NCBI GenBank assembly: GCA_041301185.1
Contig: JBFYSV010000182.1
Span: 1,328 to 65,327 of the forward strand
Direction: 5' to 3'
DNA length: 64,000 bases
Source: Anaerolineae bacterium
Lineage (GTDB): Bacteria; Chloroflexota; Anaerolineae; Anaerolineales; UBA4823
The stretch's first letter is position 1. Every line of letters begins with the position of its first letter. The notes under the pieces were generated by a model. It ran no database searches. It saw nothing but the letters and a program-made list of their open reading frames with translations, and was not told the origin of the DNA. Made by a program: the position numbers and the translations under genes. Positions 5,297-28,733 of this stretch are shown one piece after another.

Positions 5297-5384
5297 ATGA
5301 TAAAACAGGCTGAATTACACCATATTGCTGCTTGCCCTGCGTGTGATTCTCTTGAGAATGATTGACGCAGGAGGAAATGCAAAG

Positions 5385-7189: not shown

Positions 7190-8590
7190 ATGCCTCGATT
7201 AATAAACGATTCCGAGACGAAGTTTAATCGCGGCGCCTGGCTGACCCTGGCGTTTGTCATACTGCTGCTCTTCTATCTGTTTGCTTCACTCGCTTACCGC
7301 TTCTCATTGCCCACAGACGGCTGGATGGTGAATGAAGCAACGCAGGTGGGTTTCAACTACACCAAAAACCTGATGGGCGCACCTTCCGGTTTGCAGCCCG
7401 GTGATAATGTGATCGCCGTGGAGGAGAATCCCGCGGATAGGTTTAATATCTCACCTGCTCTGCAGGAAGCCTGGAAAGCAGGAGCTATCCTGGAGTACAC
7501 CGTGATCCGGGATGGTGAAGAAATACAGGTGCCTGTGACGCTGACCCACTGGCAGATTGGGAAATGGCTAAGGATTACGCTGGGCGACCCATACATGCTA
7601 TTGGGGATATTCCCGGGGTATTTCTTGCTGATCCTGGCTTTCATTGTTTTTCTGCTCCGCCCCGGTGATCTTGCTGCTGGAGCGTTTCTGTTGCTTATGA
7701 CTGCCTTATTTCAAGTGTCGAATCTGCCCACCGGCTTGGCGGAGTGGATCGATCCGCTGGCGAATATCGCCATAGTAGGAACGATCGATGTTTTGCTTGT
7801 GGTTGTTATGCCTTTCTTGTTCATCCGTTTTGGGCTGGTCTTCCCGCACCTCAAGCCGATCGTGCAGCGCCTGCCCTGGCTGACCTATGTGCCCCTCGCG
7901 ATCGGTTTGCTTATCAGCGTTTTATTCCCTTACAGTATTTTGGGCTGGTTTTGGTTGTTATTTTCATTGTTCTTAACCGTAGCCATTCTTATCCACAATG
8001 CAATCACCATGCGGGATGCGGTCAGCCGGGCACAGATCCTGTGGGGCGTGGGCGGGATCATCTTCGGCTTTGGGTTGATCGCGCTGCTGTTGGTGGCGAA
8101 TACCTTTGAGTTGATCGAGTTCAACCAAAATTTCACCAATCTGGTCTCTGCCCTCGCCCTGATGGGTATGGGCATCTGCCTGGCGATTGCCATCACCCGC
8201 TACCGCCTGTTCGACATAGAGGTCATCATTCGCCGCACGCTGGTCTACGCCGCCCTCACCGCCACCCTGGCGTTGGTTTACTTCGGCAGCGTGATCTTGA
8301 TGCAAAGCCTGTTCGAGGCAGTCACCGGGCAGCAGTCGGCAATCGCCATTGTGATCTCCACCCTGGGCATTGCCGCCCTGTTCAATCCATTGCGCAAGCG
8401 CATCCAGAAGGACATCGACCGGCGCTTCTTCCGCAAGAAGTACGACGCCGAGAAAATTGTGGCGGCGTTCGGTGCCGGTTTGCGCGAGGAAGTGGACCTG
8501 GAGGAGCTGAGCAAGCGCCTGCTGGGGGTGGTGGAGGAGACCCTGCAACCGGAGAGCCTGTCGCTGTGGTTAAGGAAGAGGTCAAAATGA
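7190..8590 (+). CDS. Output-less sensor-like polytopic membrane protein, paralog 1 (PDZ-like ectodomain type)
   Basis: 466 aa from ATG 7190. The ORF-track frame opens at 6809, but its first 127 codons overlap gene 6682-7158 in another frame. The N-terminus MPRLINDSETKFNRGAWLTL matches paralog 17407. It has a PDZ-like stretch (GAPSGLQPGDNVIAVEENP), then about 8 TM helices, then the conserved C-terminal module ITRYRLFDIEVIIRRTLVY...IDRRFFRKKYDAEK...VVEETLQPESLSLWL. Confidence 0.8.
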   Translation: MPRLINDSETKFNRGAWLTLAFVILLLFYLFASLAYRFSLPTDGWMVNEATQVGFNYTKNLMGAPSGLQPGDNVIAVEENPADRFNISPALQEAWKAGAILEYTVIRDGEEIQVPVTLTHWQIGKWLRITLGDPYMLLGIFPGYFLLILAFIVFLLRPGDLAAGAFLLLMTALFQVSNLPTGLAEWIDPLANIAIVGTIDVLLVVVMPFLFIRFGLVFPHLKPIVQRLPWLTYVPLAIGLLISVLFPYSILGWFWLLFSLFLTVAILIHNAITMRDAVSRAQILWGVGGIIFGFGLIALLLVANTFELIEFNQNFTNLVSALALMGMGICLAIAITRYRLFDIEVIIRRTLVYAALTATLALVYFGSVILMQSLFEAVTGQQSAIAIVISTLGIAALFNPLRKRIQKDIDRRFFRKKYDAEKIVAAFGAGLREEVDLEELSKRLLGVVEETLQPESLSLWLRKRSK

Positions 8591-9816
8591 GCGCCACACC
8601 TAATTTCAGGGGTCGCAAACAGTGGTGGGTGGCTATCTTGCTCTTTGGGCTATATCCTGCCATGCTTGCTGTCTGGTATTCGCTGACCGATATCTCCCCG
8701 CCCGGTCCACAGGCGCAGTCCAGTCAGGTCAGCTTTCTGATCCTGTTTGGAGCTTTCGCTGCTGTTGGCGCACTGCTCGTGGCGCACCGTCCCGCAAACC
8801 TGGTCGGCTGGATCTTCTACACATCCGGGATTGTAGGCGCATTCTCGGGTTTCGGCGGCGAATACGCCCGCTACACCCTGTTGACCAACCCGGGATCACT
8901 GCCTTACGGACTTGCGGTCGGGTTGCTCTCGGACGTGGTCTGGCTCTGGGCGCTTATTCAGATGTTCACCTTTCTGCCGCTGCTTTTCCCCACCGGGCGG
9001 CTGCCCTCGCCGCGCTGGCGCTGGGTTGGCTGGCTGACTTTTTTTGGATTTCTTGTATTATTTATCGGCATCTTTCTGACTCCCGCTATCGCATTAGGGC
9101 GGCAGGAATGGCGGTATACCGTCGAGAATCCCATCGGGATCAAAGGCGCGGAAGCGGTGCTCTCTGATATAGGCAGCAGCGCGTTTGTGCTGATCGTGGT
9201 CAGCGCATTCTTTTCCACAGTGTCGCTTTTGGTCCGCTACCGGCGAGCATCCGGGCAGGAGCGCGCCCAGATCAGGTGGTTTGCTTACGCGGTTGTCATT
9301 ATCGTGGGTTTTATTCTCCTCACTGAGATTATCGATTTTAAGGTGCCAGATATCCTGTTTGTACTGAGCATGATGACCCTGCCTATCGCCGCTGCCATCG
9401 CTATTCTTAAGTACCGCCTGTACGATATCGACGTGATCATCCGGCGCACGCTGGTCTACGGCGCGCTCACCCTGACCCTGGCGCTGGTCTACTTCGGCAG
9501 CGTGGTGCTGCTGCAGGGCGCATTCACCGCGGTCAGCGGTCAGCAGTCGGCAATCGCCATTGTGATCTCCACCCTGGGCATTGCCGCCCTGTTCACCCCA
9601 TTGCGCAAACGCATCCAAAACGACATCGACCGGCGCTTCTTCCGCAAGAAGTACGACGCCGAGAAAACCCTGCAAGCTTTCAGTGCCAACCTGCGCCAGG
9701 AGCTGGACCTGGAAGAGCTGAGCGAGCGTTTGTTGGGGGTAGTGGAGGAGACCCTGCAGCCGGAATCGGCCAGCCTGTGGATGATAAAGCCTACACTCGG
9801 AGAGAAGAAGATCTGA
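8587..9816 (+). CDS. Output-less sensor-like polytopic membrane protein, paralog 2
   Basis: 409 aa. ATG 8587 overlaps the stop of paralog 1 (ATGA). The N-terminal half contains HRPANLVGWIFY and RYRRASGQERAQIRW. The C-terminal module is ILKYRLYDIDVIIRRTLVY...IDRRFFRKKYDAEK...VVEETLQPESASLWM. Confidence 0.8.
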   Translation: MSATPNFRGRKQWWVAILLFGLYPAMLAVWYSLTDISPPGPQAQSSQVSFLILFGAFAAVGALLVAHRPANLVGWIFYTSGIVGAFSGFGGEYARYTLLTNPGSLPYGLAVGLLSDVVWLWALIQMFTFLPLLFPTGRLPSPRWRWVGWLTFFGFLVLFIGIFLTPAIALGRQEWRYTVENPIGIKGAEAVLSDIGSSAFVLIVVSAFFSTVSLLVRYRRASGQERAQIRWFAYAVVIIVGFILLTEIIDFKVPDILFVLSMMTLPIAAAIAILKYRLYDIDVIIRRTLVYGALTLTLALVYFGSVVLLQGAFTAVSGQQSAIAIVISTLGIAALFTPLRKRIQNDIDRRFFRKKYDAEKTLQAFSANLRQELDLEELSERLLGVVEETLQPESASLWMIKPTLGEKKI

Positions 9817-9883
9817 TCGGGCGATCGCTCCCAAGCCAATTGAAGGTCTTCTCCGGTATAATCGTAGTCTTGGTGCTATAGGG

Positions 9884-11254
9884 ATGAAACGCTTTGTCTT
9901 AACCCCATTCTTGCTCCCGGAGAAACCTCTGACCGGCAGGAGCCTGCTGGCTGCCCGCCTGGTATCAGCCGGGATTAGTCTGGCAAGCCTGACCATGTTC
10001 CTGGTCGCCTTACCGGCGCGCCTGGAATGGCTGACCCGCTTTTCGTTTGGCGCAGAGCGGGTTCTCCTCGAGCAAACGTTATTACTTAATGACCCCATCC
10101 ACTGGTTGACCGATGTGTTTCCGTATGTTGCCCTGGCAATCGAGATCATCGTGTTTTTGATCTACCTGTTGAACGCTGCTTTGCTCTACTACCTCCGCTC
10201 GCAAGAATGGCTGGTTTTGCTGACCTCTGCTGCGTTGATGTCCTTTGCCCTGCATATCATCCCCACCCTGAATACCTGGATGCTGGAAAACCCTGATCTG
10301 GCCTTTTTGGGGATCATCCTCAAATCGATTGGCCTGGGACTGGCTTTTCTTTTCCTGTACCTCTTCCCCAGCGGGTTTTACTCTCCACGCTGGATTCGCG
10401 TATTTTTCTTGCTGTGGATTGTTTGGGCGCTCCTATGGCTGATCTACCCGGATTCGATCTTCAGCTTTCAAGACCCGTTCAATATCAGCCTGGTTGGCTT
10501 TGTGTTGCTGATGACTTGGTGGGGGGTGGGTATCTTTGCCCAGCTATACCGCTACTCGCGCGTCTCCGGTCCAGTTGAGCGCCAGCAGACCAAGTACATC
10601 ACATTTGGAGCCACCCTGGTGGCAATCGCCTACTGCCTGTACGTGCCGCTGCGCCAGTTGATGAGCTACATGCCCCGCCCCGACCTGGCTCAAGTCGTTT
10701 TTCAAATGGTTGCCCCGTATGTGTATTTGGTCATGGTGGCTGCCATCCCCATCACGATTGCCTTGTCTATCTTGCGTTACCGGCTATGGGATATCGACCT
10801 GATCATCCGCCGGACCCTGTTATACTCTGCGCTGACCGCAACCCTGGCGGTACTCTATTTCGCCAGTGTAGTGTTGATGCAGGGCTTGCTTGCCCTGGCA
10901 GGCGTCAATCAATCGGCATTGGTAGTTGTGATCTCTACCCTGGGGATTGCGGCCTTGTTCACACCGCTGCGACAGCGCATCCAATCGGATATCGATCGTC
11001 GTTTCTTCCGCCGGCGTTACGACACCGAGAAGATCCTGGCGGCTTTTGCAACCCTGGCCAGCGAGCAGGTTGACCTGGACGAGCTAAGCAGCCGTTTTTT
11101 GGCAGTCGTTGAAGAAACGATGCAGCCCGAGTTCGCCGGCGTGTGGCTGGCGCCTCTCTCCATCGGCGGGATGCCTCCCGAAGGGGTAAATGACCAAAGA
11201 GCAAGCCAGGCTTCCAGCCTATATCGCCAATCTGTAAAGGAGGATGGTTTATGA
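9884..11254 (+). CDS. Output-less sensor-like polytopic membrane protein, paralog 3
   Basis: 456 aa, about 10 TM helices, with QLYRYSRVSGPVERQQTKYI. The C-terminal module is ILRYRLWDIDLIIRRTLLY...IDRRFFRRRYDTEK...VVEETMQPEFAGVWL, followed by a 40-aa hydrophilic tail. Confidence 0.8.
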   Translation: MKRFVLTPFLLPEKPLTGRSLLAARLVSAGISLASLTMFLVALPARLEWLTRFSFGAERVLLEQTLLLNDPIHWLTDVFPYVALAIEIIVFLIYLLNAALLYYLRSQEWLVLLTSAALMSFALHIIPTLNTWMLENPDLAFLGIILKSIGLGLAFLFLYLFPSGFYSPRWIRVFFLLWIVWALLWLIYPDSIFSFQDPFNISLVGFVLLMTWWGVGIFAQLYRYSRVSGPVERQQTKYITFGATLVAIAYCLYVPLRQLMSYMPRPDLAQVVFQMVAPYVYLVMVAAIPITIALSILRYRLWDIDLIIRRTLLYSALTATLAVLYFASVVLMQGLLALAGVNQSALVVVISTLGIAALFTPLRQRIQSDIDRRFFRRRYDTEKILAAFATLASEQVDLDELSSRFLAVVEETMQPEFAGVWLAPLSIGGMPPEGVNDQRASQASSLYRQSVKEDGL

Positions 11255-12621
11255 GTCCAGAACGCAGTAACACCCCGGTGGAACGCCAGGTGGAATGGGG
11301 TTCGCAGGATGCCGGGCAATATTTCCGCTATATGTCTGAGTTCGTTGGATTTGGCTTGCAAGAAGCCGAAGCCATCCAGGCGACTCACCTGATTGTCGAG
11401 AAGTACATCCCACAGATTGTGGGCCAGTTCTATACTAAGTTGCTGGGCTACCCGCCAACCCGCAAGGTGTTTTCGAAAAAAGACGGCAGCATCGACCAGG
11501 AATATCTCCAGATGCGCATGCACCACCTGACCAATTTTCTACGCCGCACTGCCGCTGGGGTCTATGACAATGATTATGCCCGCTTTATCGATTATGTCGG
11601 TCGGGCGCATACCTCGCATGGCGCCGACCCCAAGATTTATATCCCCGAGCGCTATGTCATCGGGCAGATTGGCTTGATCCAGCATGCCATCAGCGACGCT
11701 TTGCACAAAGAGCTGGGCGATGCGGACCCCGAGCTGGAACACCAGGCCTCCAGGGCATGGAACCTGCTGTTGATGGTGATCCTGGAGATGCTGGCCAGGG
11801 CATACAGCGACGAACGCGCTGCTGAAGGAGAGGGCACCCAGGCAACCATCGACAAAAGCACCGTCCAGCAGCTTGCAGTCCAGATCTACGAGCGCAACCT
11901 GGGGTTGTATCGCTCGATTGAGCACAAAGAGGTAAAAATTGGGAGAGTAGCCGATATCCCCGAAGGCGAGCGAAAGATTGTGGAGGTAGAGGGGGTCTCG
12001 ATTGGCGTTTTCCATCACAACGGGGACTGGTACGCCTTGCGCAATAGCTGCTTGCACCGCTCCGGGCCGGTGTGCACCGGGTCGCTAAAAGACGGCATCC
12101 TGACCTGTCCCTGGCACGGTTACCAGTATGAAATTACGAATGGTGAGTTTTTGCTGGACAGCAGCGCAAAACTGGAAATGTACCCGGTAGAGATTCGAGA
12201 AGGCGATATTTACCTGCGCGTCCCATTCCTGGTGATGGACTCGCCTCCCGTCGAGCTGGAACCAGCAAGCGGAGCAGGGACAGCCCAGCCAGTTTCCACC
12301 GCGGCCCCCGAGAAGCCATCCCTGAAAGGGAACGAGTTTTGGGTTGCAGACCTCCCACCGGGACAGATCGGTTTGGTGGTGGTGGGCGGGGAGGAAGTAG
12401 CCGTTTATAATATCGCAGGAAAATTCTACGCTACGCACAATTACTGCACCCATGCCGACGGGCCATTGAACGAGGGCTATATAGAAGAATATGGCGTGGT
12501 ATGCCCCTGGCACGACTCGTGCTTCGATGTGCGCGATGGCAGCGTGCTCAGGGGACCGGCAACCGAGCCAGTCATAGCGTATACCGTGATCGTTGAAGAC
12601 GGGATCGGCCGGGTAGAGTGA
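11251..12621 (+). CDS. Protoglobin-like (globin-coupled-sensor type) domain fused to two Rieske [2Fe-2S] domains
   Basis: 456 aa. The N-terminal ~190 aa resemble sensor globin/protoglobin (FIDYVGRAHTSHG...YIPERYVIGQIGLIQ, candidate proximal His in GRAH). There are two CxH-X(16-17)-CxxH Rieske motifs: CLHRSGPVCTGSLKDGILTCPWHG and CTHADGPLNEGYIEEYGVVCPWHD. The ATG overlaps the stop of paralog 3 (ATGA). Confidence 0.7.
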   Translation: MSPERSNTPVERQVEWGSQDAGQYFRYMSEFVGFGLQEAEAIQATHLIVEKYIPQIVGQFYTKLLGYPPTRKVFSKKDGSIDQEYLQMRMHHLTNFLRRTAAGVYDNDYARFIDYVGRAHTSHGADPKIYIPERYVIGQIGLIQHAISDALHKELGDADPELEHQASRAWNLLLMVILEMLARAYSDERAAEGEGTQATIDKSTVQQLAVQIYERNLGLYRSIEHKEVKIGRVADIPEGERKIVEVEGVSIGVFHHNGDWYALRNSCLHRSGPVCTGSLKDGILTCPWHGYQYEITNGEFLLDSSAKLEMYPVEIREGDIYLRVPFLVMDSPPVELEPASGAGTAQPVSTAAPEKPSLKGNEFWVADLPPGQIGLVVVGGEEVAVYNIAGKFYATHNYCTHADGPLNEGYIEEYGVVCPWHDSCFDVRDGSVLRGPATEPVIAYTVIVEDGIGRVE

Positions 12622-12682
12622 TTGAGTGATAAAATTTAATTCGCGGTTGATGCGTGAGAGATAAACACGCTTCGGAGGAAGC

Positions 12683-13936
12683 ATGCACCATAACAGGGTT
12701 GTGATCACCGGTCTGGGGGCTATTACCCCGCTGGGATTGTCCGTGAGCGAGTATTGGGACGGTCTGGTCCACGGTCGCTCGGGTATTCGTAAAATCAGCT
12801 TGTTTGATGCCAGCCATATGCCCTGCCAGATTGCTGGCGAGGTGCACGATTTTGATCCCGGTAACTATATGGATCGCAAAACTGCCCGGCGCATGCCGCG
12901 TTCCAGCCAGTTTGCGGTAGCGGCAGCCCGCCAGGCGATCGAAGATGCAGGTTTGGCTTATCCGATGACCGATCCGGAGCGGGTTGGCGTGTTTTTAGGC
13001 ACAGCAGTCGGCGGTCTGGATACACTCAACTCGGCAGGGGAAATCTTGCGCACCAAAGGCTTTGACCGCATCCCCCCCTTACACCTGCCGAGCGGGATTC
13101 CCAACATCCCCGCATTTCTGATTGCCCATGAGTTTCAGTGCCTGGGGCCAAATAGCACCACTGCTACCGCTTGCGCAGCTGGCACCCAGGCGGTGGGTGA
13201 AGCCTCAGAATGGATCCGCCGGGGAGCAGCGGATATTGTCATCGCTGGCGGCACAGAGACAATCGTTATGGAACTGGTGGTTGGCGCTTTCAGCGTGATG
13301 CGCGCCCTGCCGTTTGATTTTAACGACCGCCCCGAAGCTGCTTCACGTCCCTTTGACGCCTTGCGCCAGGGGTTTGTTCTATCGGAAGGCGCGGCTATAC
13401 TGGTGCTGGAAGGCCTCGAGCACGCCCAGAGGCGCGGCGCGCGGATCTACGCTGAGGTCTTGGGTTACGCCTCCTCGTCTGACGGCTATGACATCGCCGC
13501 CTTGCAGCCGGAGGGGCTGGGTCCCAGCCGGGCGATGCGCTGGGCGATCCAGAACGCCGGCCTCCAACCGAAAGATGTGGGCTATATCAACGCTCATGGC
13601 ACTTCCACATCGCTCAACGACAAAATTGAGACCCTGGCGATAAAAAATGTCTTCGGTGAAGATGCGTATAAAGTCACCATCAGCTCGACCAAATCGATGA
13701 TGGGCCACGCCATGGGCGCTTCCGGCGCGCTGGAAGCGATTGCCTGCACCCTGGCGATTGGTAAGGGCGTGATCCCTCCCACGATCAACTATGAAAACCC
13801 CGACCCCGAGTGCGATCTGTTCTACACCCCCAACCAGGCGATCCAGCGCAATGTGAATATCGCTATGTCGAACTCGTTTGGCCTGGGCGGGCAGAACGCC
13901 TGCCTGGTATTGAAGCGTATGAACGGGGATAGTTAA
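12683..13936 (+). CDS. fabF: Beta-ketoacyl-ACP synthase II
   Basis: 417 aa. Recognisable features are RVVITGLGAITPLG, the active-site region ATACAAG, INAHGTSTSLND and SNSFGLGGQNACLVL. GGAGGA RBS. Confidence 0.9.
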   Translation: MHHNRVVITGLGAITPLGLSVSEYWDGLVHGRSGIRKISLFDASHMPCQIAGEVHDFDPGNYMDRKTARRMPRSSQFAVAAARQAIEDAGLAYPMTDPERVGVFLGTAVGGLDTLNSAGEILRTKGFDRIPPLHLPSGIPNIPAFLIAHEFQCLGPNSTTATACAAGTQAVGEASEWIRRGAADIVIAGGTETIVMELVVGAFSVMRALPFDFNDRPEAASRPFDALRQGFVLSEGAAILVLEGLEHAQRRGARIYAEVLGYASSSDGYDIAALQPEGLGPSRAMRWAIQNAGLQPKDVGYINAHGTSTSLNDKIETLAIKNVFGEDAYKVTISSTKSMMGHAMGASGALEAIACTLAIGKGVIPPTINYENPDPECDLFYTPNQAIQRNVNIAMSNSFGLGGQNACLVLKRMNGDS

Positions 13937-13966
13937 ACACTCGCCCCTGATAACAGGCATCCTGGA

Positions 13967-15922
13967 TTGAACAAGGGAACGGACGTCCTGTTACAGCCAG
14001 ACGAAATTCCTGCGCAGCCGCGCAGGCGGCTTTGGTTTGGGCGGGTAGCCTGGCTTGTGCTGGCTATCCTGGTAGCGATTTACTGCCTGGCGGTTGTTCC
14101 GATTGATGTTCGGAATTACCCGGATAGTTGGGAGGCGGTTTCTAGCTACCCGGCTGTGGATAGCCTGCTTTCTTTCTCTGCTTATTCCTTCTATCAGCTC
14201 GCCCTGCGCTACCTGGTTATCTTCTTCTCGTTTTTCGTCGCCCTGACGATCTTTATCCGGGTTGGGCTGGCGGATAGCAGGTACGCGCCGGTTGCCCTGC
14301 TGGCGGCCTCCTTGCTGGTCTTATTCCCGCTGCTTGTTTCCCTGGGAGCCAGCGGAGTGGATCTGCCTTATGCTCGACCGTGGGATCGGGTCTTAGAGGC
14401 GGTTGGTCTCCTGCTGGGCTTGCTGTGCTTCCCGCTGCTCATCTGGTTTTATTTCGTCTTTCCTGATGGGAATTTCAACCCTGGTTGGATGCGCTGGCTG
14501 GGAGCGCCGCTTGCCGTAACGATAGTTCTTATGTTTTCGCTTTCGGTTACCCAGGCTATCCCTGGGGGATGGTGGTGGGCTGTTGGAATGCTGGCGTTCC
14601 TGGTCGCTTTAGTGGCGGGGATTGCTTCGCAGATATACCGCTACCGGGTTCTTGCCAGTGCTGCAGAGAAGAGCCGCACCCGCTGGGTCATCGTAAGCCT
14701 GCTCCTGTTGCCTGTGCTGACAATCCTGGGTTCCAGCCTGTCTGCGCTGATCAATATCCACCTGCAAGCTCTTTCCGTGGCTCTGCTGCCAACCGCATTG
14801 CTCATATCGATCTTCAAATACGGGCTTTGGGCGGTGCGCCTATCCCCCCGTCGGGTGAAAGGATACGCCTACCTGGTTGGGGTTTTGGTGGTTACCGGCA
14901 TGCTGAGCCTGTTCTGGTTCAATCGCACCTACCAGCTAGAAGCTTACCCTGCCATCGATTTTGAGCCGCTGCCGCAAACCGATCAGCAATTGCCGGTGGT
15001 CATCGACACTGATATGGCTGCCGACGACTGGATGGCGATCCTCTTTCTATTGCAGCGCTCGGATGTGCAGGTCAAAGCGATCACGGTCACCGGGGCAGGC
15101 GAAGCCCATTGCGAGCCTGGCGTGCGTAATGCCCTGGGGCTGGTGGCGCTGGCTGGTAATGATCCCATCCCGGTGGCTTGTGGTCGAGAAACCCCGCTGG
15201 CGGGAAACCAGGAGTTCCCCCAGGCGTGGCGGGAGGGCGTTGACCAGTTGCTGGGGTTGCAGCTGCCTGAGGGCAGCAATCCGGATACCACCGGCAATGC
15301 TGTCGATCTGCTCGTATCCACAGCCGAAACTTCACCCGAAAAAGTAGTCTTGCTGACCCTCGGCCCGCTGACCAATGTGGCAGAAGCCATCCAGCAAGAG
15401 CCCGCCTTCCTGGAGAACATCCAGCAGATCTATATCATGGGCGGGGCGCTGCAGGTTCCAGGCAACGTGTTTTATTCGGGGGTGGGAATCGATAATAAAG
15501 ATGCTGAATGGAATGTTTTTGTGGACCCGCTGGCAGCCAAGATAGTCATCGAATCGGGTGCCCCGGTCACCCTGGTGCCCTTGGATGCCACCAACCAGGT
15601 GCCAGCCGATCTGAGCTTCTACCGCCAACTGCAAAGCAACCGCAAAACGCCTGAAGCGGAGTTTATTTACCAGGTGCTGAGCAACAAGCTGGATATGATC
15701 CTGCCGGGCGTTTACTATTTCTGGGATCCCCTGGTGGCGGCGGTGGCAGTTGATGAGAGCATTGGATATATCAAAGATGGTCTGGTTCGGGTCATTGCAG
15801 AGCCGGGGGTGCACAGCGGAGCCACCCGCCTGGTGAAAGATGGTGTTCCGGTGCGCTATGCCAAGTCGGCGGACAACGAGCGGTTTGTTTTCGAGTTCCT
15901 GCGTGCTTTAAATCAGGAGTAG
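13967..15922 (+). CDS. Fusion: sensor-like polytopic membrane domain (same family as paralogs 3, 5 and 7) + inosine-uridine-preferring nucleoside hydrolase domain
   Basis: 651 aa. The N-terminal ~310 aa are multi-TM, with QIYRYRVLASAAEKSRTRWV and ISIFKYGLWAV (degenerate versions of the family motifs). The C-terminal ~320 aa carry the IUNH signature VVIDTDMAADDWMAILFLL (DTDxxxDD), then YIMGGA and WDPLVAAVAV. The TTG start has no clear SD, so the start is uncertain. Confidence 0.7.
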   Translation: MNKGTDVLLQPDEIPAQPRRRLWFGRVAWLVLAILVAIYCLAVVPIDVRNYPDSWEAVSSYPAVDSLLSFSAYSFYQLALRYLVIFFSFFVALTIFIRVGLADSRYAPVALLAASLLVLFPLLVSLGASGVDLPYARPWDRVLEAVGLLLGLLCFPLLIWFYFVFPDGNFNPGWMRWLGAPLAVTIVLMFSLSVTQAIPGGWWWAVGMLAFLVALVAGIASQIYRYRVLASAAEKSRTRWVIVSLLLLPVLTILGSSLSALINIHLQALSVALLPTALLISIFKYGLWAVRLSPRRVKGYAYLVGVLVVTGMLSLFWFNRTYQLEAYPAIDFEPLPQTDQQLPVVIDTDMAADDWMAILFLLQRSDVQVKAITVTGAGEAHCEPGVRNALGLVALAGNDPIPVACGRETPLAGNQEFPQAWREGVDQLLGLQLPEGSNPDTTGNAVDLLVSTAETSPEKVVLLTLGPLTNVAEAIQQEPAFLENIQQIYIMGGALQVPGNVFYSGVGIDNKDAEWNVFVDPLAAKIVIESGAPVTLVPLDATNQVPADLSFYRQLQSNRKTPEAEFIYQVLSNKLDMILPGVYYFWDPLVAAVAVDESIGYIKDGLVRVIAEPGVHSGATRLVKDGVPVRYAKSADNERFVFEFLRALNQE

Positions 15923-16033
15923 CTGGCTCACCCGGCAGTCTCCTTCCTGGGTCCGTCAATCTATTCTCTCTGGCAGCTTTACCATATTGCGTCAATACAC
16001 AAAACGCGCGTATTGCTGCCGGATTCCCTCTTT

Positions 16034-16078
16034 CGTAACGCCAACCGTAACACTTTCGAGACGGGAGGTGAGTATCAT
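16034..16078 (+). promoter_or_regulatory. Second copy of the CGTAACG-N5-CGTAAC(A)-N20-TATCAT promoter architecture
   Basis: CGTAACG at 16034-16040, CGTAACA at 16046-16052, TATCAT at 16073-16078. The spacings are identical to the copies at 5252 and 20692. It lies upstream of paralog 5. Confidence 0.4.
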
Positions 16079-16117
16079 ATACCCATCTATCTTGACATTT
16101 ATGACCCAAGGAGAATA

Positions 16118-17410
16118 TTGAAAAGCCTCTTGAGTGTGCCAGAAACAGTACCCTTTCGTAATAGCGGGGCATGGTTGCGAATAGCGCGCCCGCTGGCTTT
16201 CTTGCTGGGAGCTGTACTCACCCTGCTGGCGATTTATTCGTACGCCTATACAGCCAGTATGGTCTTCACAAATCCGGCGCTGGTTCTGCCGGATGAAAAA
16301 TGGACAGCCCCCCTACTTAACAATGCCCTGGTTGGATTGGGGCTGCCGGGAGCTTTTTATGCTGTTTTTACCCTGGGCATAACCCTGCTATTTGGTCTTT
16401 CTTTCCTGGTCTGTGGTTGGTTAATCCTGCTGCGCAGAAGCCGGGATTGGTTTGGCCTGTACCTGGCTCTGTTACTTTTAGCCTGGGCAAGCGGGGTGGG
16501 GGTGTTTTCTTCAATGCCGAGTGCTGCCTGGACCGAGGGCACTTATCTCGGCTGGTTTATGTGGCCGGGATTATTCTTGTTGCCTTATTTTTTCCCCAGC
16601 GGTCATGTTATCCCACGCTGGGCGCGCTGGTTCGCCTGGGGCTGGATTTTATTCTCCGCTTATATGTTTGTAACGGATGTCCTGGGTGTTCTCCCCGAGA
16701 ATTTCTTGCTCTTTTTACCGGTAATTTTTTCTGTTCTGCTGGTGGGCGGCTACGCTCAGATCTACCGTTACCGCCATGCCAGCGCGCTGGAACGCCAGCA
16801 AATCAAGCTAGTGGTATTTTCGTTGGTACTTTTCGCTACATTCTTTGTATTCTTTGCGCTGGCAATCAATTACACCGGGTTGGTTGACCCAGGCAAACGC
16901 AGCCCGGTCAGCGCGCTTGCCTTTAGCCTCCTCCTTTCAACCGGCGCTCATCTGGTTTTTATGGGCGTGCCTATCTCCATCGCCGTGGCGATTCTGCGTT
17001 ACCGGCTGTGGGATATGGATATTGTGATCCGCCGCACCCTGGTCTACGGCGGTTTGACCCTCACCCTGGCGCTGGTGTATTTTGGCAGCGTGATCCTTTT
17101 ACAAAGTATGGTGACCGCCGTCGGCGGGCAGCAGACGGCGGTCGTAACCGTGATCTCCACCCTGCTGATTGCCGCCCTGTTCAACCCGCTACGCAAGCGC
17201 ATCCAGAGCGGTATTGACCGGCGCTTCTTTCGTAAGAAATACGACGCCGAGAAGGTCGTGGTCGCGTTCGGCGCCAGCCTGCGCCAGGAGGTGGATTTGG
17301 AAGATCTACAATCTCAGATTGTGGCGGTAGTGGAAGAGACCCTGCAACCGGAGCTGGTCAGCCTGTGGCTGAGACCGGGAACAGATAAGAAGGGTGAGGT
17401 GAGCCTGTGA
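16118..17410 (+). CDS. Output-less sensor-like polytopic membrane protein, paralog 5
   Basis: The ORF-track frame opens at 16013 (TTG), but that would place the candidate promoter inside the gene. In-frame TTG 16118 follows AAGGAG. The protein contains QIYRYRHASALERQQIKLV. The C-terminal module is ILRYRLWDMDIVIRRTLVY...IDRRFFRKKYDAEK...VVEETLQPELVSLWL. The start is uncertain. Confidence 0.75.
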   Translation: MKSLLSVPETVPFRNSGAWLRIARPLAFLLGAVLTLLAIYSYAYTASMVFTNPALVLPDEKWTAPLLNNALVGLGLPGAFYAVFTLGITLLFGLSFLVCGWLILLRRSRDWFGLYLALLLLAWASGVGVFSSMPSAAWTEGTYLGWFMWPGLFLLPYFFPSGHVIPRWARWFAWGWILFSAYMFVTDVLGVLPENFLLFLPVIFSVLLVGGYAQIYRYRHASALERQQIKLVVFSLVLFATFFVFFALAINYTGLVDPGKRSPVSALAFSLLLSTGAHLVFMGVPISIAVAILRYRLWDMDIVIRRTLVYGGLTLTLALVYFGSVILLQSMVTAVGGQQTAVVTVISTLLIAALFNPLRKRIQSGIDRRFFRKKYDAEKVVVAFGASLRQEVDLEDLQSQIVAVVEETLQPELVSLWLRPGTDKKGEVSL

Positions 17411-18849
17411 GTGCCTGGACTCGACAGATAGATGAAAAACGCTTTGATCGCGGCGCCTGGGTGGTCCTGGCTTTAGCCCTGGCTCTGGTGCTGTTGAGCG
17501 CGGCCCAGATTGCTTACCGCTATACCCTGCCCACCGATGGATGGTCGGTGTACACCACCCAGGTTGATCAAGCAGATTGGGTTTACTCGAGCAATCTGGT
17601 TGGAGCGCCATCTGGTTTGCAACAAAATGATGCCCTGCTGGCTGTCGATGACCTGCCGATGCAGGGCAGCGCTACCAGTTACGCGGTACCACCTCCGCCT
17701 GGCTGGGTTGCCGGTCAAAGCGTCGATATGACAGTGCAGCGTGGGGAGCAGGAGGTTTCTATTCTGGTACCGGTTGTTCGCTGGACGCCAGGAGCCTTGT
17801 GGCGCTACAACATCGCAGACCTGGTCAAACTGATCAGTCTGCTCGGCGTGCTGACACTTTTCGCGGTCGGTCTGTTTACTTTCATCAAGCGTCCCAGTGT
17901 GCTAGCAGCGCGGGCGTTGCTGGTGTTGTGTTCCGCGTCCTTTGCTAACAGCCTGAGCGGGCTGCTACCGGATGGGCTTTCAGTGCAGTTCGACCCACTG
18001 GCATTCGCCTTCACCGCTTTCTTTAGCTATATCATCTTTGGAACCCTGCTGGCGCCATCTATCCTGGCCTTTACTTTGCTCTTTCCCCATCCCAAGCGCG
18101 TAATCCAAAGATACCCCAGGATAGGCCTGCTGCCTTATGCTCTAGGGTTGGCGATCTTGATTGCCCTGCTGGCTGGAGTGCCGGGGTCAATTGGCTGGTT
18201 TGGTACGCTGGGTATGATCCTGGCTTCGATTACCAGCATGGTGCATTCGGGTTTCACCCAGCGAGATGCGGTCAGCCGGGCGCAGTTGCGCTGGGCGATC
18301 GGTGGCTTCATTGCCGGTCTGGGTCTGGCGCTGTTGACCTTCCCGGCTGCATTGGGTTGGGTAACCAATCCCTTCCTGGCACAATTGCTGGGATCCGGGG
18401 TCAGTATCGGCTTTACCGTGATTAGCATCTGTCTGGCCATTGCTGTGCTGCGCTACCGTCTGTGGGACATCGACGTCATCATCCGGCGTACGCTGGTCTA
18501 TGCCGCGCTGACCGCCACTCTGGCGCTGGTCTACTTTGGCAGCGTGATCTTGCTGCAAAGCCTGGTGACGGCGGTCGGGGGGCAGCAGACGGCGGTCATC
18601 ACGGTCATTTCCACCCTGTTGATCGCTGCCTTATTCACCCCGCTGCGCAGGCGTATCCAGAACGATATCGACCGGCGCTTCTTTCGCAAGAAGTACGACG
18701 CCGAGAAGGTTGTGGCCGCATTCGGCAGCAGCCTGCGTGAAGAAGTGGACCTTGACGACCTGCAAGACCATATTGTGGCGGTGGTAGAGCAGACCTTGCA
18801 ACCGGAACACGCCAGCCTGTGGCTGAGGAATCCGGAGAAGAGAGGGTGA
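17407..18849 (+). CDS. Output-less sensor-like polytopic membrane protein, paralog 6 (PDZ-like ectodomain type)
   Basis: 480 aa. The GTG start overlaps the stop of paralog 5 (GTGA). The N-terminus is collinear with paralog 1 (FDRGAWVVL...YRYTLPTDGW...GAPSGLQQNDALLAVDD), and HSGFTQRDAVSRAQLRW matches HNAITMRDAVSRAQILW of paralog 1. The C-terminal module is present. Confidence 0.8.
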   Translation: MSAWTRQIDEKRFDRGAWVVLALALALVLLSAAQIAYRYTLPTDGWSVYTTQVDQADWVYSSNLVGAPSGLQQNDALLAVDDLPMQGSATSYAVPPPPGWVAGQSVDMTVQRGEQEVSILVPVVRWTPGALWRYNIADLVKLISLLGVLTLFAVGLFTFIKRPSVLAARALLVLCSASFANSLSGLLPDGLSVQFDPLAFAFTAFFSYIIFGTLLAPSILAFTLLFPHPKRVIQRYPRIGLLPYALGLAILIALLAGVPGSIGWFGTLGMILASITSMVHSGFTQRDAVSRAQLRWAIGGFIAGLGLALLTFPAALGWVTNPFLAQLLGSGVSIGFTVISICLAIAVLRYRLWDIDVIIRRTLVYAALTATLALVYFGSVILLQSLVTAVGGQQTAVITVISTLLIAALFTPLRRRIQNDIDRRFFRKKYDAEKVVAAFGSSLREEVDLDDLQDHIVAVVEQTLQPEHASLWLRNPEKRG

Positions 18850-20126
18850 CCGAAGGGAGACTGCACTCTACCCAGTTGCATGGCATCTGGCTTCAATTGG
18901 CTCGTCTCTTGTGGTGGGTGGCTGTCCTGGCGATCACCACCATTTTTGTGGTCGCATTACCCGTGCGCATGGAACAAATTCGCCAGGATCCTTACCAGCT
19001 CACACCGATCCTGAATCAATTGGGGCTGGGCATCACTTTCTTTGTGTTCTATGGCCACACATTGGAGATCATTCTCTCGTTTGCATGCCTGGCGATTGCC
19101 CTGATCATTTACTGGCGCAAGTCAGACGATTGGATGGGGCTGCTGGTTTCACTGGGTCTGGTTTCATTTATGGCCCTTCTGCCTCCTATTGCCGCGCTGT
19201 CGGAGACGAATCCAGAGTGGCGCATCCCGGTGTTCTTGCTTCGTATCTTCAGCTTCGCCGCCTTGCTGATGATTTTCTATTTATTTCCGGATGGACGCTT
19301 TGTGCCTGGTTGGAGTAGGTATATCCTCCTGTTTTTCATTGCAATGTCATCTTTATGGCTTCTGTTCCCTGGGCTGACCCTCCCAGCCGCGCCGGCTGAT
19401 ATTCAATCTATACCGCAAGCTTTACTGGTAGCCTGGGTGATCCTTGGACTCAGCACGGGGGTATTTGCCCAGCTCTATCGCTACCGCAGAGTATCTGCGA
19501 ATGTGGAGCGCCAGCAGACCAAGTGGGTTGTGATGGGTTTTCTGGGGGTGTTCTTGGGGCTGCTCCTGGTTTCTTTGCCGGTGCTCTTATTTCCTGCTTT
19601 GCTTGAACCAGGCATGCCAAATTTCATCTACTTGATGATCGCCATTCCGGTAGCCTTGTTCGGCTGGTTTTTATTCCCATTGACCCTGGGTATATCCATC
19701 CTGAAATATCGTTTGTGGGATATCGATGTCATCATTCGGCGCACGCTGGTTTATGGTGGTCTGACTGCTACCCTGGCTCTGGTCTACTTCAACAGCGTGA
19801 TACTGATGCAGAGCCTGGTGACGGCGGTCGGCGGGCAACAGACAGCGCTTGTAACGGTGATCTCCACCTTGCTCATCGCCGCCCTGTTCACCCCGCTGCG
19901 ACGCCGAATTCAAAATGACATCGACCGGCGCTTTTTCCGCAAGAAGTACGATGCCGAGAAAACTGTGACAACATTCAGTGCCAGCCTGCGAGAAGCCGTA
20001 GACTTGGAGGTCTTGATCGAACGATTGGAGGCTGTGGTGGAAGAAACCTTACAGCCGGAATATGTGAGTCTGTGGTTTGTTAAACAGAAACCGAAGGATG
20101 AGTTGGAAAACCGACTTGATATTTAG
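18846..20126 (+). CDS. Output-less sensor-like polytopic membrane protein, paralog 7
   Basis: The ORF-track start is GTG 18819. In-frame GTG 18846 gives a GTGA start/stop overlap like its neighbours. The protein contains QLYRYRRVSANVERQQTKWV. The C-terminal module is ILKYRLWDIDVIIRRTLVY...IDRRFFRKKYDAEK...VVEETLQPEYVSLWF. Confidence 0.8.
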   Translation: MTEGRLHSTQLHGIWLQLARLLWWVAVLAITTIFVVALPVRMEQIRQDPYQLTPILNQLGLGITFFVFYGHTLEIILSFACLAIALIIYWRKSDDWMGLLVSLGLVSFMALLPPIAALSETNPEWRIPVFLLRIFSFAALLMIFYLFPDGRFVPGWSRYILLFFIAMSSLWLLFPGLTLPAAPADIQSIPQALLVAWVILGLSTGVFAQLYRYRRVSANVERQQTKWVVMGFLGVFLGLLLVSLPVLLFPALLEPGMPNFIYLMIAIPVALFGWFLFPLTLGISILKYRLWDIDVIIRRTLVYGGLTATLALVYFNSVILMQSLVTAVGGQQTALVTVISTLLIAALFTPLRRRIQNDIDRRFFRKKYDAEKTVTTFSASLREAVDLEVLIERLEAVVEETLQPEYVSLWFVKQKPKDELENRLDI

Positions 20127-20138
20127 AAGGAGTATCCG

Positions 20139-20609
20139 ATGAGAATTGGTATAAAGACATTTACCTTACTTATACCCGTGCTGATATTGGCTTTGTCTGC
20201 TTGTAGTTCTGAACAAACCGAGCCTATAATAGATCCTACCCAGGGCGCTCAAATGCTGGCAGGGAATTACAAAACCAGTATTACCACCGAGGACATCAGT
20301 AATTTTCAGATCTCGAGCGACCCCAGTCTTGGGATGAACCAGGGAGACTGGCTGTTCACCCTGACCCATGATGGAAAATTCAATGCCGAGATGGACGGAA
20401 ATTTTATGGCGGCGGGAAAATACACTGTGGAAGGTGATCGCATCGAGGTGTATATCGAGAGCAGTTGTGAGGAATGTGGTTGCATAAATGCGATCGGTCG
20501 CTATGTCTGGGCGCTGAATGAGGATACTTTAACCTTTGTAAAAACGGCAGGAAGCTGTTACGGTATGGACCTTGTTCTCACCTCAAAAGCTCTTACCCGG
20601 CAGCCTTAG
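20139..20609 (+). CDS. Lipoprotein, unknown function
   Basis: 156 aa. The signal peptide has a lipobox (LILALSAC). AAGGAG RBS. The start is 12 nt after paralog 7. Confidence 0.65.
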   Translation: MRIGIKTFTLLIPVLILALSACSSEQTEPIIDPTQGAQMLAGNYKTSITTEDISNFQISSDPSLGMNQGDWLFTLTHDGKFNAEMDGNFMAAGKYTVEGDRIEVYIESSCEECGCINAIGRYVWALNEDTLTFVKTAGSCYGMDLVLTSKALTRQP

Positions 20610-20764: not shown

Positions 20765-22405
20765 ATGACAGCATACTTGAAAAAATCCTGGCGCTCTCTG
20801 TTTGGATTGAAGGCAGTTGAAACTGAGGAACCGGTCTCGCTCAAGCTGGATAAGCCCAACCGGACGATGACCCTCAACCTGGATTTGGGTGCAAATGATC
20901 CTCTCCTGGCTTATTTCCTGAGCGCTCAAGGTGTTGTAGAGATCGACCGCCTGGAGATGGACTCACCCGCTTTGCGCGCTCTGAAGGAAGCCGGGGTGAA
21001 GGTCACCGCGCCGCTGGTCAGCCAGGGCGAGTTGATCGGTTTGCTGAACCTGGGGGGGCGCCTCAGCGAGCAAGACTACACCACAGACGACCGCCATTTG
21101 TTGAACACACTGGCTACCCAGGCCGCGCCAGCCTTGCGCGTCGCCCAACTTGCTCGCCAGCAGCAAATCGAAGCCCGCGAGCGGGAGCGTCTTGATCAGG
21201 AGCTGCGCGTGGCGCGGGTCATCCAGCAAACCTTGCTGCCCAAATCGCTGCCAGAGTTGTTTGGATGGCGGGTGGACGCTCTTTGGCAACCCGCCCGCGC
21301 TGTCAGCGGTGATTTTTATGATTATATTATTTTCTCGGATGGCAAGCTTGGGCTGGTGATTGGTGATGTTACCGATAAGGGTGTCCCGGCTGCATTGGTA
21401 ATGGCAACCACGCGCAGCATCCTGCGAGCCGCGGCAGAACGATATACCTCACCCGGGGAAATTCTGGCATATGTGAACGATCTGCTCTGTCAGGATATCC
21501 CCCAGAACATGTTTGTCACCTGCCTGTATATCATCCTCGATCCCATCAGCGGACACATGCTCTTTGCCAATGCCGGACACAACTTGCCGGTACACCTGAC
21601 CCAAGACGGCGTGCAGGAGCTACGCGCCACAGGGATGCCGCTAGGCTTGATGCCCGGGATGAATTATGAGGAGAAGGAAGCCCATCTATCGCCCGGCGAC
21701 GGGTTGATGATCTACAGCGATGGGTTGGTGGAAGCGCATAACGTGAGTGGAGATATGTTTGGTTTTCCTCGATTGCGTGAGCTCCTTGCGCAGCAGAGTC
21801 AGCTGGGCGATCGATCGGGCGAAGCCTCGATCCAGATGCTCAAAGGCAAGCTCGCCGAGTTCACCGGCCCGGCCTGGGAGCAGGAGGATGATGTGACATT
21901 GGTGACCTTAGAATATGTAGCTTCTGTGGAGGCACCCTCATCTGTACAGGAAGAGTCCCAGCAAGAAGAAACCTATGCTACTCTGGCTGAGTTCAGCTTG
22001 CCCAGCGAGCCCGGCAATGAGATCCTGGCAAAGGAAGAAGTTGCCAGGATTGTCCAGGGACTGAATTTTCGAGGAGAACGCCTGGAACGCTTGAAGACGG
22101 CCGTTGCTGAGGCAACCATGAACGCCATGGAACACGGTAACCAATATCGCGACGATCAGCCGGTCAATATCCAGGTTCTGGCATCGCCTTCAACGCTGAT
22201 GGTACGAATTTCCGATTACGGAGGGGGTCAACCGATCCCCGAACCCGAAACCCCAGACCTGGAAGCTAAACTGGCGGGATTGCAATCGCCGCGTGGCTGG
22301 GGCTTATTTTTGATCAAGAATATGGTCGATGAGATGCGCGTGCAGACCGATGAGGTGCACCACACCGTTGAGCTCATTTTTAATTTGGAAGGAAAACCTT
22401 TATGA
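20765..22405 (+). CDS. Partner-switching regulator: GAF-like N-terminus + PP2C (SpoIIE/RsbU-type) phosphatase + RsbW-like HATPase domain
   Basis: 546 aa. Recognisable features are GELIGLLNLGG...DDRHLLNTLATQAA (GAF end), RVARVIQQTLLP...SGDFYD...IGDVTDKGVPAAL...YSDGLVEA (PP2C motifs), and the C-terminal AEATMNAMEHGN...GWGLFLIKNMVDE (GHKL ATPase N and G boxes). Confidence 0.8.
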   Translation: MTAYLKKSWRSLFGLKAVETEEPVSLKLDKPNRTMTLNLDLGANDPLLAYFLSAQGVVEIDRLEMDSPALRALKEAGVKVTAPLVSQGELIGLLNLGGRLSEQDYTTDDRHLLNTLATQAAPALRVAQLARQQQIEARERERLDQELRVARVIQQTLLPKSLPELFGWRVDALWQPARAVSGDFYDYIIFSDGKLGLVIGDVTDKGVPAALVMATTRSILRAAAERYTSPGEILAYVNDLLCQDIPQNMFVTCLYIILDPISGHMLFANAGHNLPVHLTQDGVQELRATGMPLGLMPGMNYEEKEAHLSPGDGLMIYSDGLVEAHNVSGDMFGFPRLRELLAQQSQLGDRSGEASIQMLKGKLAEFTGPAWEQEDDVTLVTLEYVASVEAPSSVQEESQQEETYATLAEFSLPSEPGNEILAKEEVARIVQGLNFRGERLERLKTAVAEATMNAMEHGNQYRDDQPVNIQVLASPSTLMVRISDYGGGQPIPEPETPDLEAKLAGLQSPRGWGLFLIKNMVDEMRVQTDEVHHTVELIFNLEGKPL

Positions 22406-22749
22406 ACCATGCCTTTGGAGCCAGTGTGCGCCAGCGCTCCGGACTGGCGATCATCGATTTATCCGGCGAGATCAACGCCTTTGCCGACCAGGAACTGGAT
22501 GCGGTGTATAGTGAGGCTGAAGCAACCAATGCCAGCAACATTGTGTTGAACTTCGAGCGTGTGACGTATATTAACAGCACGGGTATTGCCTTGATTGTTG
22601 GTCTCTTAGCCCGGGCGCGCAAAGCCAATCGCCGCCTGGCGGTAATCGGTCTGAGCGATCATTATGTGGAAATCTTTCATATCACCCGACTGGTCGATTT
22701 TATGAGTATCTATCCGGATGAGACCAGCGTTTTGGCGCAAGTGGGATAA
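22402..22749 (+). CDS. STAS-domain anti-sigma-factor antagonist (RsbV/SpoIIAA-like)
   Basis: 115 aa. It contains YINSTGIALIVGL (the phospho-Ser/Thr position motif, S/T-G). The ATGA overlap with the PP2C gene stop suggests translational coupling. Confidence 0.8.
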   Translation: MNHAFGASVRQRSGLAIIDLSGEINAFADQELDAVYSEAEATNASNIVLNFERVTYINSTGIALIVGLLARARKANRRLAVIGLSDHYVEIFHITRLVDFMSIYPDETSVLAQVG

Positions 22750-23129: not shown

Positions 23130-23160
23130 CCCTGATTTGCACCCCTTTCCAGGAGGCAAA

Positions 23161-28731: not shown

Positions 28732-28733
28732 GC

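Follow-up and report, generated by a model that had tools for sequence, protein, structure and literature searches.

Tandem kinase-less membrane input domains encoded next to a partner-switching phosphatase in an Anaerolineae bacterium

What could a row of polytopic membrane proteins do for a bacterium when most of them end without any recognisable output domain? This question is raised by a 64-kb stretch of DNA from an Anaerolineae bacterium (contig JBFYSV010000182.1), the whole of which is called the window here. Seven membrane-protein genes on its + strand, labelled G1 to G7, stand ahead of a gene for a PP2C-type phosphatase fused to an RsbW-like kinase and of two STAS genes (Table 1). All seven open reading frames (ORFs) named in a preliminary description of the window were found in the ORF listing. 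That description regarded the proteins as sensors cut off just where a transmitter would start. They are instead members of a large family, kept by selection, in which the proteins normally end at this very point and are related to the membrane input domain of histidine kinases. On balance we lean towards the view that a single partner-switching phosphatase receives several membrane inputs from the array, as alternatives or in joint assemblies.

Six of the seven genes (G1-G3 and G5-G7) share the C-terminal module of about 125 aa that had been noticed before, and G4 lacks it. With one module as query, tblastn gave six matches in the window and no more (E 6e-49 to 2e-87), apart from noise. The copies are indeed highly similar, but the 75-90% identity given earlier was somewhat too high: we measured 58-83% over 118-122 aa with a mean of about 72%, G3 carrying the most divergent copy (58-66% to the other window modules). 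The parts before the module are 25-37% identical between the window copies. All motifs quoted previously are present in the proteins, and hydropathy as well as an AlphaFold2 (AF2) model of G7 agree with about ten transmembrane (TM) helices, at the upper end of the earlier count of 8-10. Neither Pfam nor NCBIfam detected a kinase, cyclase, phosphodiesterase or DNA-binding domain in the module-bearing proteins, which match no Pfam domain of any sort, and for G1 to G7 there was no STAS, GAF, HisKA_3 or HATPase_c match in Pfam, and none to the last two in NCBIfam either. A Pfam scan of 58 family members from different genomes gave no match, nor did a sequence search of the PDB with module and core. 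Foldseek comparison of the membrane core with the PDB returned only generic seven-helix bundles of the G-protein-coupled receptor and rhodopsin kind (best E 0.075, TM-score at most 0.39).

The N-terminal parts had been sorted into three types that looked unrelated to each other. The classes were recovered, but hhalign aligned them over about 200 columns with probabilities of 99.5% (A-B), 96.3% (A-C) and 95.8% (B-C), so that unrelated N-terminal domains were rejected; by profile comparison, types A, B and C are divergent versions of one membrane core. Among 98 full-length representatives, about 60 belong to type A (as G3, G4, G5 and G7), 25 to type B (as G2) and five to type C (as G1 and G6). 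Type C carries an extra outward domain, for which the proposed PDZ-like character finds a faint echo at residues 64-125 (E 0.025-0.03 to PDZ-containing families).

The positive-inside rule suggests a topology with both termini in the cytoplasm and about ten TM helices. The AF2 model of G7 has an overall predicted local distance difference test (pLDDT) score of 85. Its eight-helix core is confident, with values above 94 at residues ~10-170 and ~200-280; TM9-TM10 score 64-86 and the tail 47-73, with no order in the beta1 stretch of the monomer. For the 58 members from different genomes, mean pairwise identity is 62% within the module and 26% before it. When conservation is mapped onto the AF2 helix pattern, the highest values fall on the presumably cytoplasmic loops FPDGRFVPxW, YRYRR..ERQQTKW and YRLWDID..RR (0.75-0.86), followed by TM9-TM10 (0.69-0.78) and by the juxtamembrane motif and tail (0.66-0.81). 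TM1-8 and the outward loops are variable (0.13-0.39).

The key to this pattern lies in histidine kinases, as the preliminary description had suggested. The module is the last third of a HisKA_3 kinase input domain, and its final ~45 aa correspond to alpha1-beta1 of a GAF domain. In the following, L-numbers denote related genomic loci, 77 of which were kept, and P-numbers denote protein matches from profile searches. The protein L036:674-2341 has the QIYRYR..RQQTKW core and the module, and then continues directly with what remains of a small GAF domain and with HisKA_3 and HATPase_c. Its region from module to HisKA_3, used as a query, retrieved at least 1179 such proteins. Among the best 120 of these, all 120 contain HisKA_3 and all 120 cover positions 1-129 of the hidden Markov model (HMM) of the module, which is followed by a median of about 287 further residues. 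These GAF-HisKA_3 kinases of Chloroflexota and Actinomycetota (NarL-partner type; L036:674-2341, P0390-P0509) have the same FPDGR, YRYR..RQQTKW and YRLWDID motifs, TM9-TM10 and alpha1-beta1 tail as the window proteins, whereas the latter stop 0-30 aa after beta1 without GAF remainder, HisKA_3 or HATPase_c, and are encoded in tandem arrays. The juxtamembrane motif differs as well, being DRRFFRKKYDAEK in the kinase-less family and NRLMYGDRDDPY in the kinases. The alignments thus show the window proteins to be kinase-less paralogues of the complete membrane input domain of GAF-HisKA_3 kinases, and by the same comparison the kinase-less family is a lineage distinct from the module-bearing kinases.

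The sole curated model with similarity to the window proteins is that of PrsK (TIGR02916), the XrtA/PEP-CTERM kinase, of which positions ~127-350, comprising the TM region and the start of the GAF domain, align to G2, G5, G6 and G7. The matches of G6 (E 1.8e-8, 33.4 bits) and G5 (E 3.8e-8, 32.4 bits) illustrate the distance, as the window proteins reach 12-33 bits against a cut-off of 300 bits and lack the kinase domains. No exosortase XrtA, PrsR or PEP-CTERM genes were noticed among the annotated neighbours, where no search aimed at them was made. HisKA_7TM (PF16927), MASE, 5TMR-LYT and 7TMR-DISM represent the same concept, an integral-membrane input without a large periplasmic domain. None of these profiles matched a window protein or any of the 58 members, and just one fragment from our first protein search carried PF16927.

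The kinase-less form is by no means restricted to the window. A profile built from the six window modules and searched against 1.84 billion representative proteins (clusters at 50% identity) matched 23,886 clusters, 13,106 of them at E<=1e-10 and 4,207 at E<=1e-30. The best 150 of the 23,886 are nearly all 400-480 aa long, and their module stops no more than ~10 residues short of the C-terminus. One genome per species was scanned, with more than 572 matches, and the 77 loci retained for neighbourhood counts come from Anaerolineae, Caldilineae, Promineifilaceae, Ca. Amarolinea, Litorilinea and other Chloroflexota, and also from Rubrobacter and other Actinomycetota. In the 77 loci, 204 near-complete modules were counted by six-frame HMM search, 197 of which lie within 25 aa of a stop codon. 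The end point is hence normal for the family, and the idea of a known family that regularly ends here fails only in that this one is undescribed. Nor are the genes single-copy and without neighbourhood association: copies within an array are always on one strand, and 79% of the loci of at least 15 kb have two or more copies and 62% three or more. The largest array holds 11 complete copies in 15 kb (L070); L023 has 12 module matches, some of them partial.

Within the window, dN/dS ratios of nonsynonymous to synonymous substitution between copies are 0.05-0.30, which at the codon level shows purifying selection on the module family. Synonymous divergence (dS) ranges from 0.47 to saturated and third-position identity is 39-74%. 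On these dS and dN/dS values we rejected recent gene conversion as the source of the module similarity. G1 and G2 are the only copies whose modules share a long identical stretch (55 nt), and no pair has a lower dS (0.47); this stretch may be a local gene-conversion tract on a background of old divergence.

Two complete members are fused in frame in 7 of the top 150 representatives and also in L067:9833-11824. The fusion proteins P0121, P0122, P0124, P0126, P0129 and P0223 are 630-960 aa long with linkers of 40-60 aa. These double-member proteins could be real fusions or the products of lost stop codons; if real, they would mean that neighbouring family members work side by side. As a technical observation, syntenic clusters in long-read metagenomes (L001, ENA ERZ25039600 contig_60571, and L081) are broken into short ORFs by apparent frameshifts, and for this reason our first protein search gave mostly module-only fragments of 110-230 aa.

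The earlier suggestion of a link to the downstream phosphatase is strongly supported by synteny that is conserved in both directions. In the common gene order the array comes after a divergent BTAD-AAA-TPR regulator, a cytochrome c gene and one for a small membrane protein, and is followed by the GAF-PP2C-HATPase_c_2 gene, two STAS genes, a gene of unknown function (~260 aa) and an FAD oxidoreductase. The phosphatase occurs in 31 of the 77 loci and each STAS gene in 30, STAS1 every time after PP2C. Homologues of the 259-aa protein are present in 27 loci, of the cytochrome c in 20, of the FAD oxidoreductase in 19 and of the small membrane protein in 18, where it stands every time ahead of the first array gene. 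The BTAD regulator has an upstream homologue in 17 of the 29 loci with at least 5 kb of upstream sequence. Where at least 4 kb follow the last module (42 loci), PP2C is found within 4 kb and on the same strand in 25, with a gap below 300 nt in 11 of these 25, and in these 25 loci PP2C, both STAS genes and the homologue of the 259-aa protein gene follow the last array gene. Conversely, searching from homologues of the PP2C N-terminus, we found 1-7 family genes directly upstream in five of seven long contigs.

Stop and start codons overlap at G1/G2 and G3/protoglobin (ATGA), at G5/G6 and G6/G7 (GTGA) and at PP2C/STAS1, which is consistent with one operon and coupled translation. A promoter scan of the window gave no excess over shuffled expectation, and terminator-like sites fall within genes.

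By their predicted domains, the downstream genes encode a phosphatase, an RsbW/SpoIIAB-like kinase and STAS proteins with a serine motif, as in partner-switching modules of the RsbU/RsbW/RsbV type. The PP2C/SpoIIE domain (PF07228, E 2e-49) spans residues 191-383 of the enzyme, and its HATPase_c_2 domain (PF13581, E 3.8e-19) resembles the anti-sigma F factor model TIGR01925 (E 6.4e-13). The serine of the NSTG and NSSG motifs occupies the position phosphorylated in RsbV and SpoIIAA. No sigma factor is found among the conserved cluster genes.

The N-terminal domain of the enzyme is an incomplete GAF domain. Only the C-terminal halves of Pfam GAF models match it (residues 43-124), and residues 73-141 match positions 405-473 of the PrsK profile, downstream of the stretch 127-350 that is matched by the modules. 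Residues 77-142 align with the GAF hairpin, last helix and linker of the kinases (hhalign 97.8%, E 8.7e-13). In 27 orthologues the first ~35 residues are variable save for a short W-R motif, and conservation begins at DIAPNDP. An AF2 model built from 121 sequences leaves residues 1-32 disordered, with neither alpha1 nor beta1, and continues with two short helices, a hairpin (80-86/89-95) and then a helix of 50 residues (107-157) that runs up to the phosphatase. Foldseek finds GAF domains only for this N-terminus, and these weakly, with 75-99 of ~150 residues aligned. We also considered whether the enzyme has an alpha1-beta1 of its own, as the segment KAVETEEPVSLKLDKP resembles the end of the module; this was rejected, since the segment is unconserved in the 27 orthologues and predicted to be disordered. 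The same truncated GAF was met elsewhere in the window and the loci only in PP2C orthologues, in the L036 kinase and in one weak L045 match. The phosphatase GAF without alpha1 and beta1 and the membrane proteins with alpha1 and beta1 but without the rest form a suggestive complementarity.

From these observations a mechanism can be drawn for an input array. Array genes would be co-transcribed and partly translationally coupled, and the variable eight-helix core would presumably read the signal. The cytoplasmic face, made up of the FPDGRFVPxW, YRYRR..ERQQTKW and YRLWDID..RR loops, the TM9-TM10 hairpin, DRRFFRKKYDAEK and the alpha1-beta1 tail, would be the part that is common to all inputs. This conserved face or the tail might bind the N-terminal domain and linker of the PP2C protein and shift its phosphatase/kinase balance, as RsbT does on RsbU, and the PP2C/HATPase_c_2 enzyme would in turn set the phosphorylation state of the two STAS proteins. 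Hetero-oligomerisation of array neighbours is plausible, because the TM hairpin of the module is continued by dimeric helices in the kinases, and because neighbouring genes are translationally coupled and in-frame fusions of two members occur. As for the signal, a loose hint at redox, oxygen or membrane state comes from the neighbouring genes for cytochrome c, protoglobin-Rieske and FAD oxidoreductase. At the other end, the BTAD (SARP-like) regulator could be the transcriptional end of the pathway, and the switch may have its output or target in the 259-aa protein, for which Pfam, NCBIfam, PDB and PADLOC gave no match.

In the stressosome of B. subtilis, the co-sensors RsbRA-RsbRD and YtvA feed RsbT and, through it, RsbU. 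By analogy to RsbR, the window combines paralogues of variable N-terminus and conserved C-terminus with PP2C, STAS and HATPase_c_2 genes. In contrast to RsbR, however, the paralogues have ten TM helices, and their conserved part is a TM hairpin with a GAF fragment instead of a STAS domain; moreover, there is no separate RsbT, HATPase_c_2 being fused to PP2C, and no sigma factor in the cluster. The likeness extends to the way in which a partner is thought to activate a PPM phosphatase, namely through N-terminal domain and helical linker (PMC12143880). In the published model, partner proteins such as RsbT and RsbQ bind this N-terminal domain and linker, order a coiled-coil and activate the enzyme; the paper notes as well that identical kinds of sensor domain serve kinases and phosphatases alike (PMC12143880). 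The mechanism proposed here fits this published linker ordering. A second parallel is Rv1364c of M. tuberculosis, a PAS-PP2C-HATPase_c_2-STAS fused phosphatase-kinase (cited in PMC12143880). Like Rv1364c, the window enzyme is a single chain that combines a sensor domain and a helical linker with PP2C and an RsbW-like kinase and has STAS domains as targets, but it has an incomplete GAF in place of PAS, two separate STAS substrates and a membrane-protein array ahead of it.

Several points weigh against an array of inputs to the phosphatase. Contact between any family member and the PP2C protein is something that we infer, and synteny is compatible with input, output or mere co-regulation alike. 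Seventeen of the 42 arrays lack PP2C within 4 kb downstream, and two of the seven PP2C loci lack an upstream array (a Ktedonobacter contig and a locus with an oxidoreductase in this slot), so that neither partner strictly needs the other in cis. No fusion of module and PP2C was seen among the ORFs of the loci or in the PP2C search, a weak negative as the listing consists mainly of short fragments; all 28 full-length PP2C orthologues are soluble proteins of 530-606 aa. Finally, the tail and the TM9-TM10 region of the G7 model are of moderate or low confidence only.

A more specific form of the input reading would let the alpha1-beta1 tail insert into the PP2C GAF and complete its beta-sheet in trans, like a plug in a socket; a single socket would then be contested, or jointly occupied, by several membrane sensors. 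The coverage of the PrsK profile, with modules at 127-350 and PP2C at 405-473, fits such a split, as does the fact that in the fused kinases the GAF remainder directly follows the same tail. The N-terminus of PP2C is variable, predicted to be disordered to residue ~32, and has only a two-strand hairpin and one short strand. Foldseek aligns just 75-99 columns of ~150-aa GAF domains. On the side of the membrane proteins, the tail strand is unstructured in the monomer model and the tail is 66-81% conserved across genomes. However, residues 35-76, in the middle of the PP2C GAF, correspond to nothing in the mini-GAF of the kinases, and the two halves are thus not simply one known domain cut in two. 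PP2C loci without nearby arrays exist, and homodimerisation could complete the GAF instead. We therefore treat this contact as a possibility on the unlikely side. Doubtful, too, is its combinatorial version, in which interchangeable ten-TM tails complete the GAF of one enzyme in trans and order its helical linker; it would multiplex many membrane signals onto one output and make the array a membrane-embedded functional counterpart of the stressosome.

If the input reading is set aside altogether, the kinase-less proteins might act on GAF-HisKA_3 kinases by forming mixed dimers through TM9-TM10 and the juxtamembrane region, adding or damping input, and the proximity to PP2C would reflect mere co-regulation. 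At least 1179 kinases of the same phyla have the module with its two TM helices, which lead into the dimeric signalling helices of the kinase; one module-bearing kinase adjoins the cluster in L036, and two members can evidently lie next to each other, as in the natural fusions. But a module-bearing kinase is near only one of the 77 loci, compared with PP2C in 31, and the juxtamembrane motif of the family is DRRFFRKKYDAEK rather than NRLMYGDRDDPY, which argues for a cytoplasmic partner different from that of the kinases. We consider mixed dimers improbable.

Equally improbable in our estimation is a membrane function outside signalling, such as transport, lipid or envelope chemistry or an accessory role in respiration, with the proteins being targets of the switch or co-expressed with it. 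Partner-switching outputs are not always sigma factors, the cluster contains cytochrome c, protoglobin-Rieske and FAD oxidoreductase genes, and G4 carries an enzyme domain in place of the module. This domain is an inosine-uridine nucleoside hydrolase (IU_nuc_hydro, residues 344-640, E 4.5e-59), which in the presumed topology would face outward, and the G4 core aligns to the L036 kinase (E 3.5e-12). The architecture is kept in L002:1171-3024, L005:13040-14893 and L045:7086-9104, and in L063:2696-6436 a complete module is followed by TM helix and hydrolase in one open frame. Against a non-signalling function stand the lack of any transporter or enzyme family match in Pfam, NCBIfam and PDB by sequence or fold, the conservation of cytoplasmic loops and tail instead of TM1-8, where a substrate path would run, and the homology of the whole membrane domain to a bona fide histidine-kinase input domain.

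That the genes are decaying remnants, i.e. truncated kinase pseudogenes or artefacts of assembly or gene calling, can safely be discounted: they do end where a kinase would continue, and frameshifted copies exist in some long-read assemblies (L001), but local truncation is rejected by the common end point across thousands of clusters and by the dN/dS of 0.05-0.30 at diverged synonymous sites, and the intact frames, ribosome-binding sites, coupled stop/start codons and distinct conserved juxtamembrane motif speak against it as well.

Both components of the system, a histidine-kinase input domain and a partner-switching module, are familiar in kind. In Pfam, NCBIfam, PDB and the literature we searched there is no account of the free-standing, multiplied form without kinase, of its conserved coupling to PP2C or of the complementary GAF pieces; the literature search found no description of family or cluster, in line with the earlier remark that no such system was known. 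With 23,886 clusters from Chloroflexota to Rubrobacter and other Actinomycetota, this very large family has neither a Pfam or NCBIfam model nor a structure. A domain model is merited and would allow thousands of Chloroflexota 'hypothetical proteins' to be annotated as signalling components. What serves as the membrane input domain in a common class of histidine kinases also occurs free-standing and multiplied, genetically tied to a serine phosphatase/kinase switch, and this offers a testable case of how PP2C-type general-stress phosphatases receive membrane signals and of how kinases and phosphatases share one input domain. Should the split-GAF contact be true, it would represent a new way of wiring many sensors to one output.

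Table 1. Genes of the array and of the conserved cluster around it in the window.
Feature	Coordinates	Strand	Support or detail
BTAD-AAA_16-TPR (SARP/STAND-type) regulator, 1014 aa, winged-helix/BTAD, divergent from cluster	2104..5148	-	Pfam BTAD 1.4e-18, AAA_16 2.8e-27, TPR_12 1.3e-22
c-type cytochrome, membrane-anchored; starts + strand cluster	5325..6290	+	Pfam Cytochrom_C 3.9e-14
Small polytopic membrane protein, 158 aa	6682..7158	+	DUF2231/DUF5518 matches sub-threshold only
G1, family member, type C: signal-anchor TM helix, ~90-aa outward PDZ-like domain (predicted), membrane core	7190..8590	+	module 8198-8587
G2, family member, type B (HRPANLVGW variant)	8587..9816	+	module 9403-9792
G3, family member, type A, with 30-aa extra tail	9884..11254	+	module 10769-11149
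Protoglobin + 2x Rieske [2Fe-2S] fusion, within array	11251..12621	+	Pfam Protoglobin 3.1e-21, Rieske 2.4e-35
Beta-ketoacyl synthase, FabF-like, stand-alone, within array	12683..13936	+	Pfam ketoacyl-synt 3e-47, Ketoacyl-synt_C 1.6e-39
G4, type A core (QIYRYR motif, degenerate KYGLWAV motif), TM helix and nucleoside hydrolase replacing module	13967..15922	+	PF01156
G5, family member, type A; TTG start, AAGGAG 4 nt upstream	16118..17410	+	module 16991-17395
G6, family member, type C	17407..18849	+	module 18445-18846
G7, family member, type A	18846..20126	+	module 19698-20078
Small predicted lipoprotein, signal peptide with LSAC lipobox, between array and PP2C gene	20139..20609	+	no Pfam match
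Partner-switching enzyme: N-terminally incomplete GAF (~35-130), long helical linker, PP2C/SpoIIE, RsbW-like HATPase_c_2	20765..22405	+	Pfam, AF2, hhalign
STAS (anti-anti-sigma-like) protein 1, NSTG serine motif	22402..22749	+	Pfam STAS 7.5e-14
STAS protein 2, NSSG serine motif	22776..23129	+	Pfam STAS 3.3e-17
Conserved protein of unknown function, 259 aa, after STAS pair	23137..23916	+	homologues in related loci
FAD-dependent amine-oxidase-like oxidoreductase, final conserved cluster gene	24139..25593	+	Pfam Amino_oxidase 1.6e-12, NAD_binding_8 6.1e-12

The remaining genes of the cluster recur to very different degrees. Arrays are sometimes interrupted by a protoglobin-Rieske gene or by a hydrolase fusion of the G4 type. 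Protoglobin-Rieske homologues lie within or beside arrays in seven loci, and this recurrence hints at a gas or redox input. The FabF-like synthase is common only to the two closest relatives, L001 and L005, and the lipoprotein has homologues in none of the 77 loci. A role in defence is not indicated, as PADLOC gave no match.

Beyond the cluster, the - strand of the window encodes a methylene-tetrahydrofolate reductase (MTHFR), its DUF5981 C-terminal partner and a CCG/4Fe-4S (heterodisulfide-reductase-like) protein at 26249-29417. These adjoin a 1578-aa multi-domain flavin/iron-sulfur oxidoreductase gene at 30496-35232, also on the - strand. An MTHFR/DUF5981 pair similar to that of the window is located near PP2C in L079.

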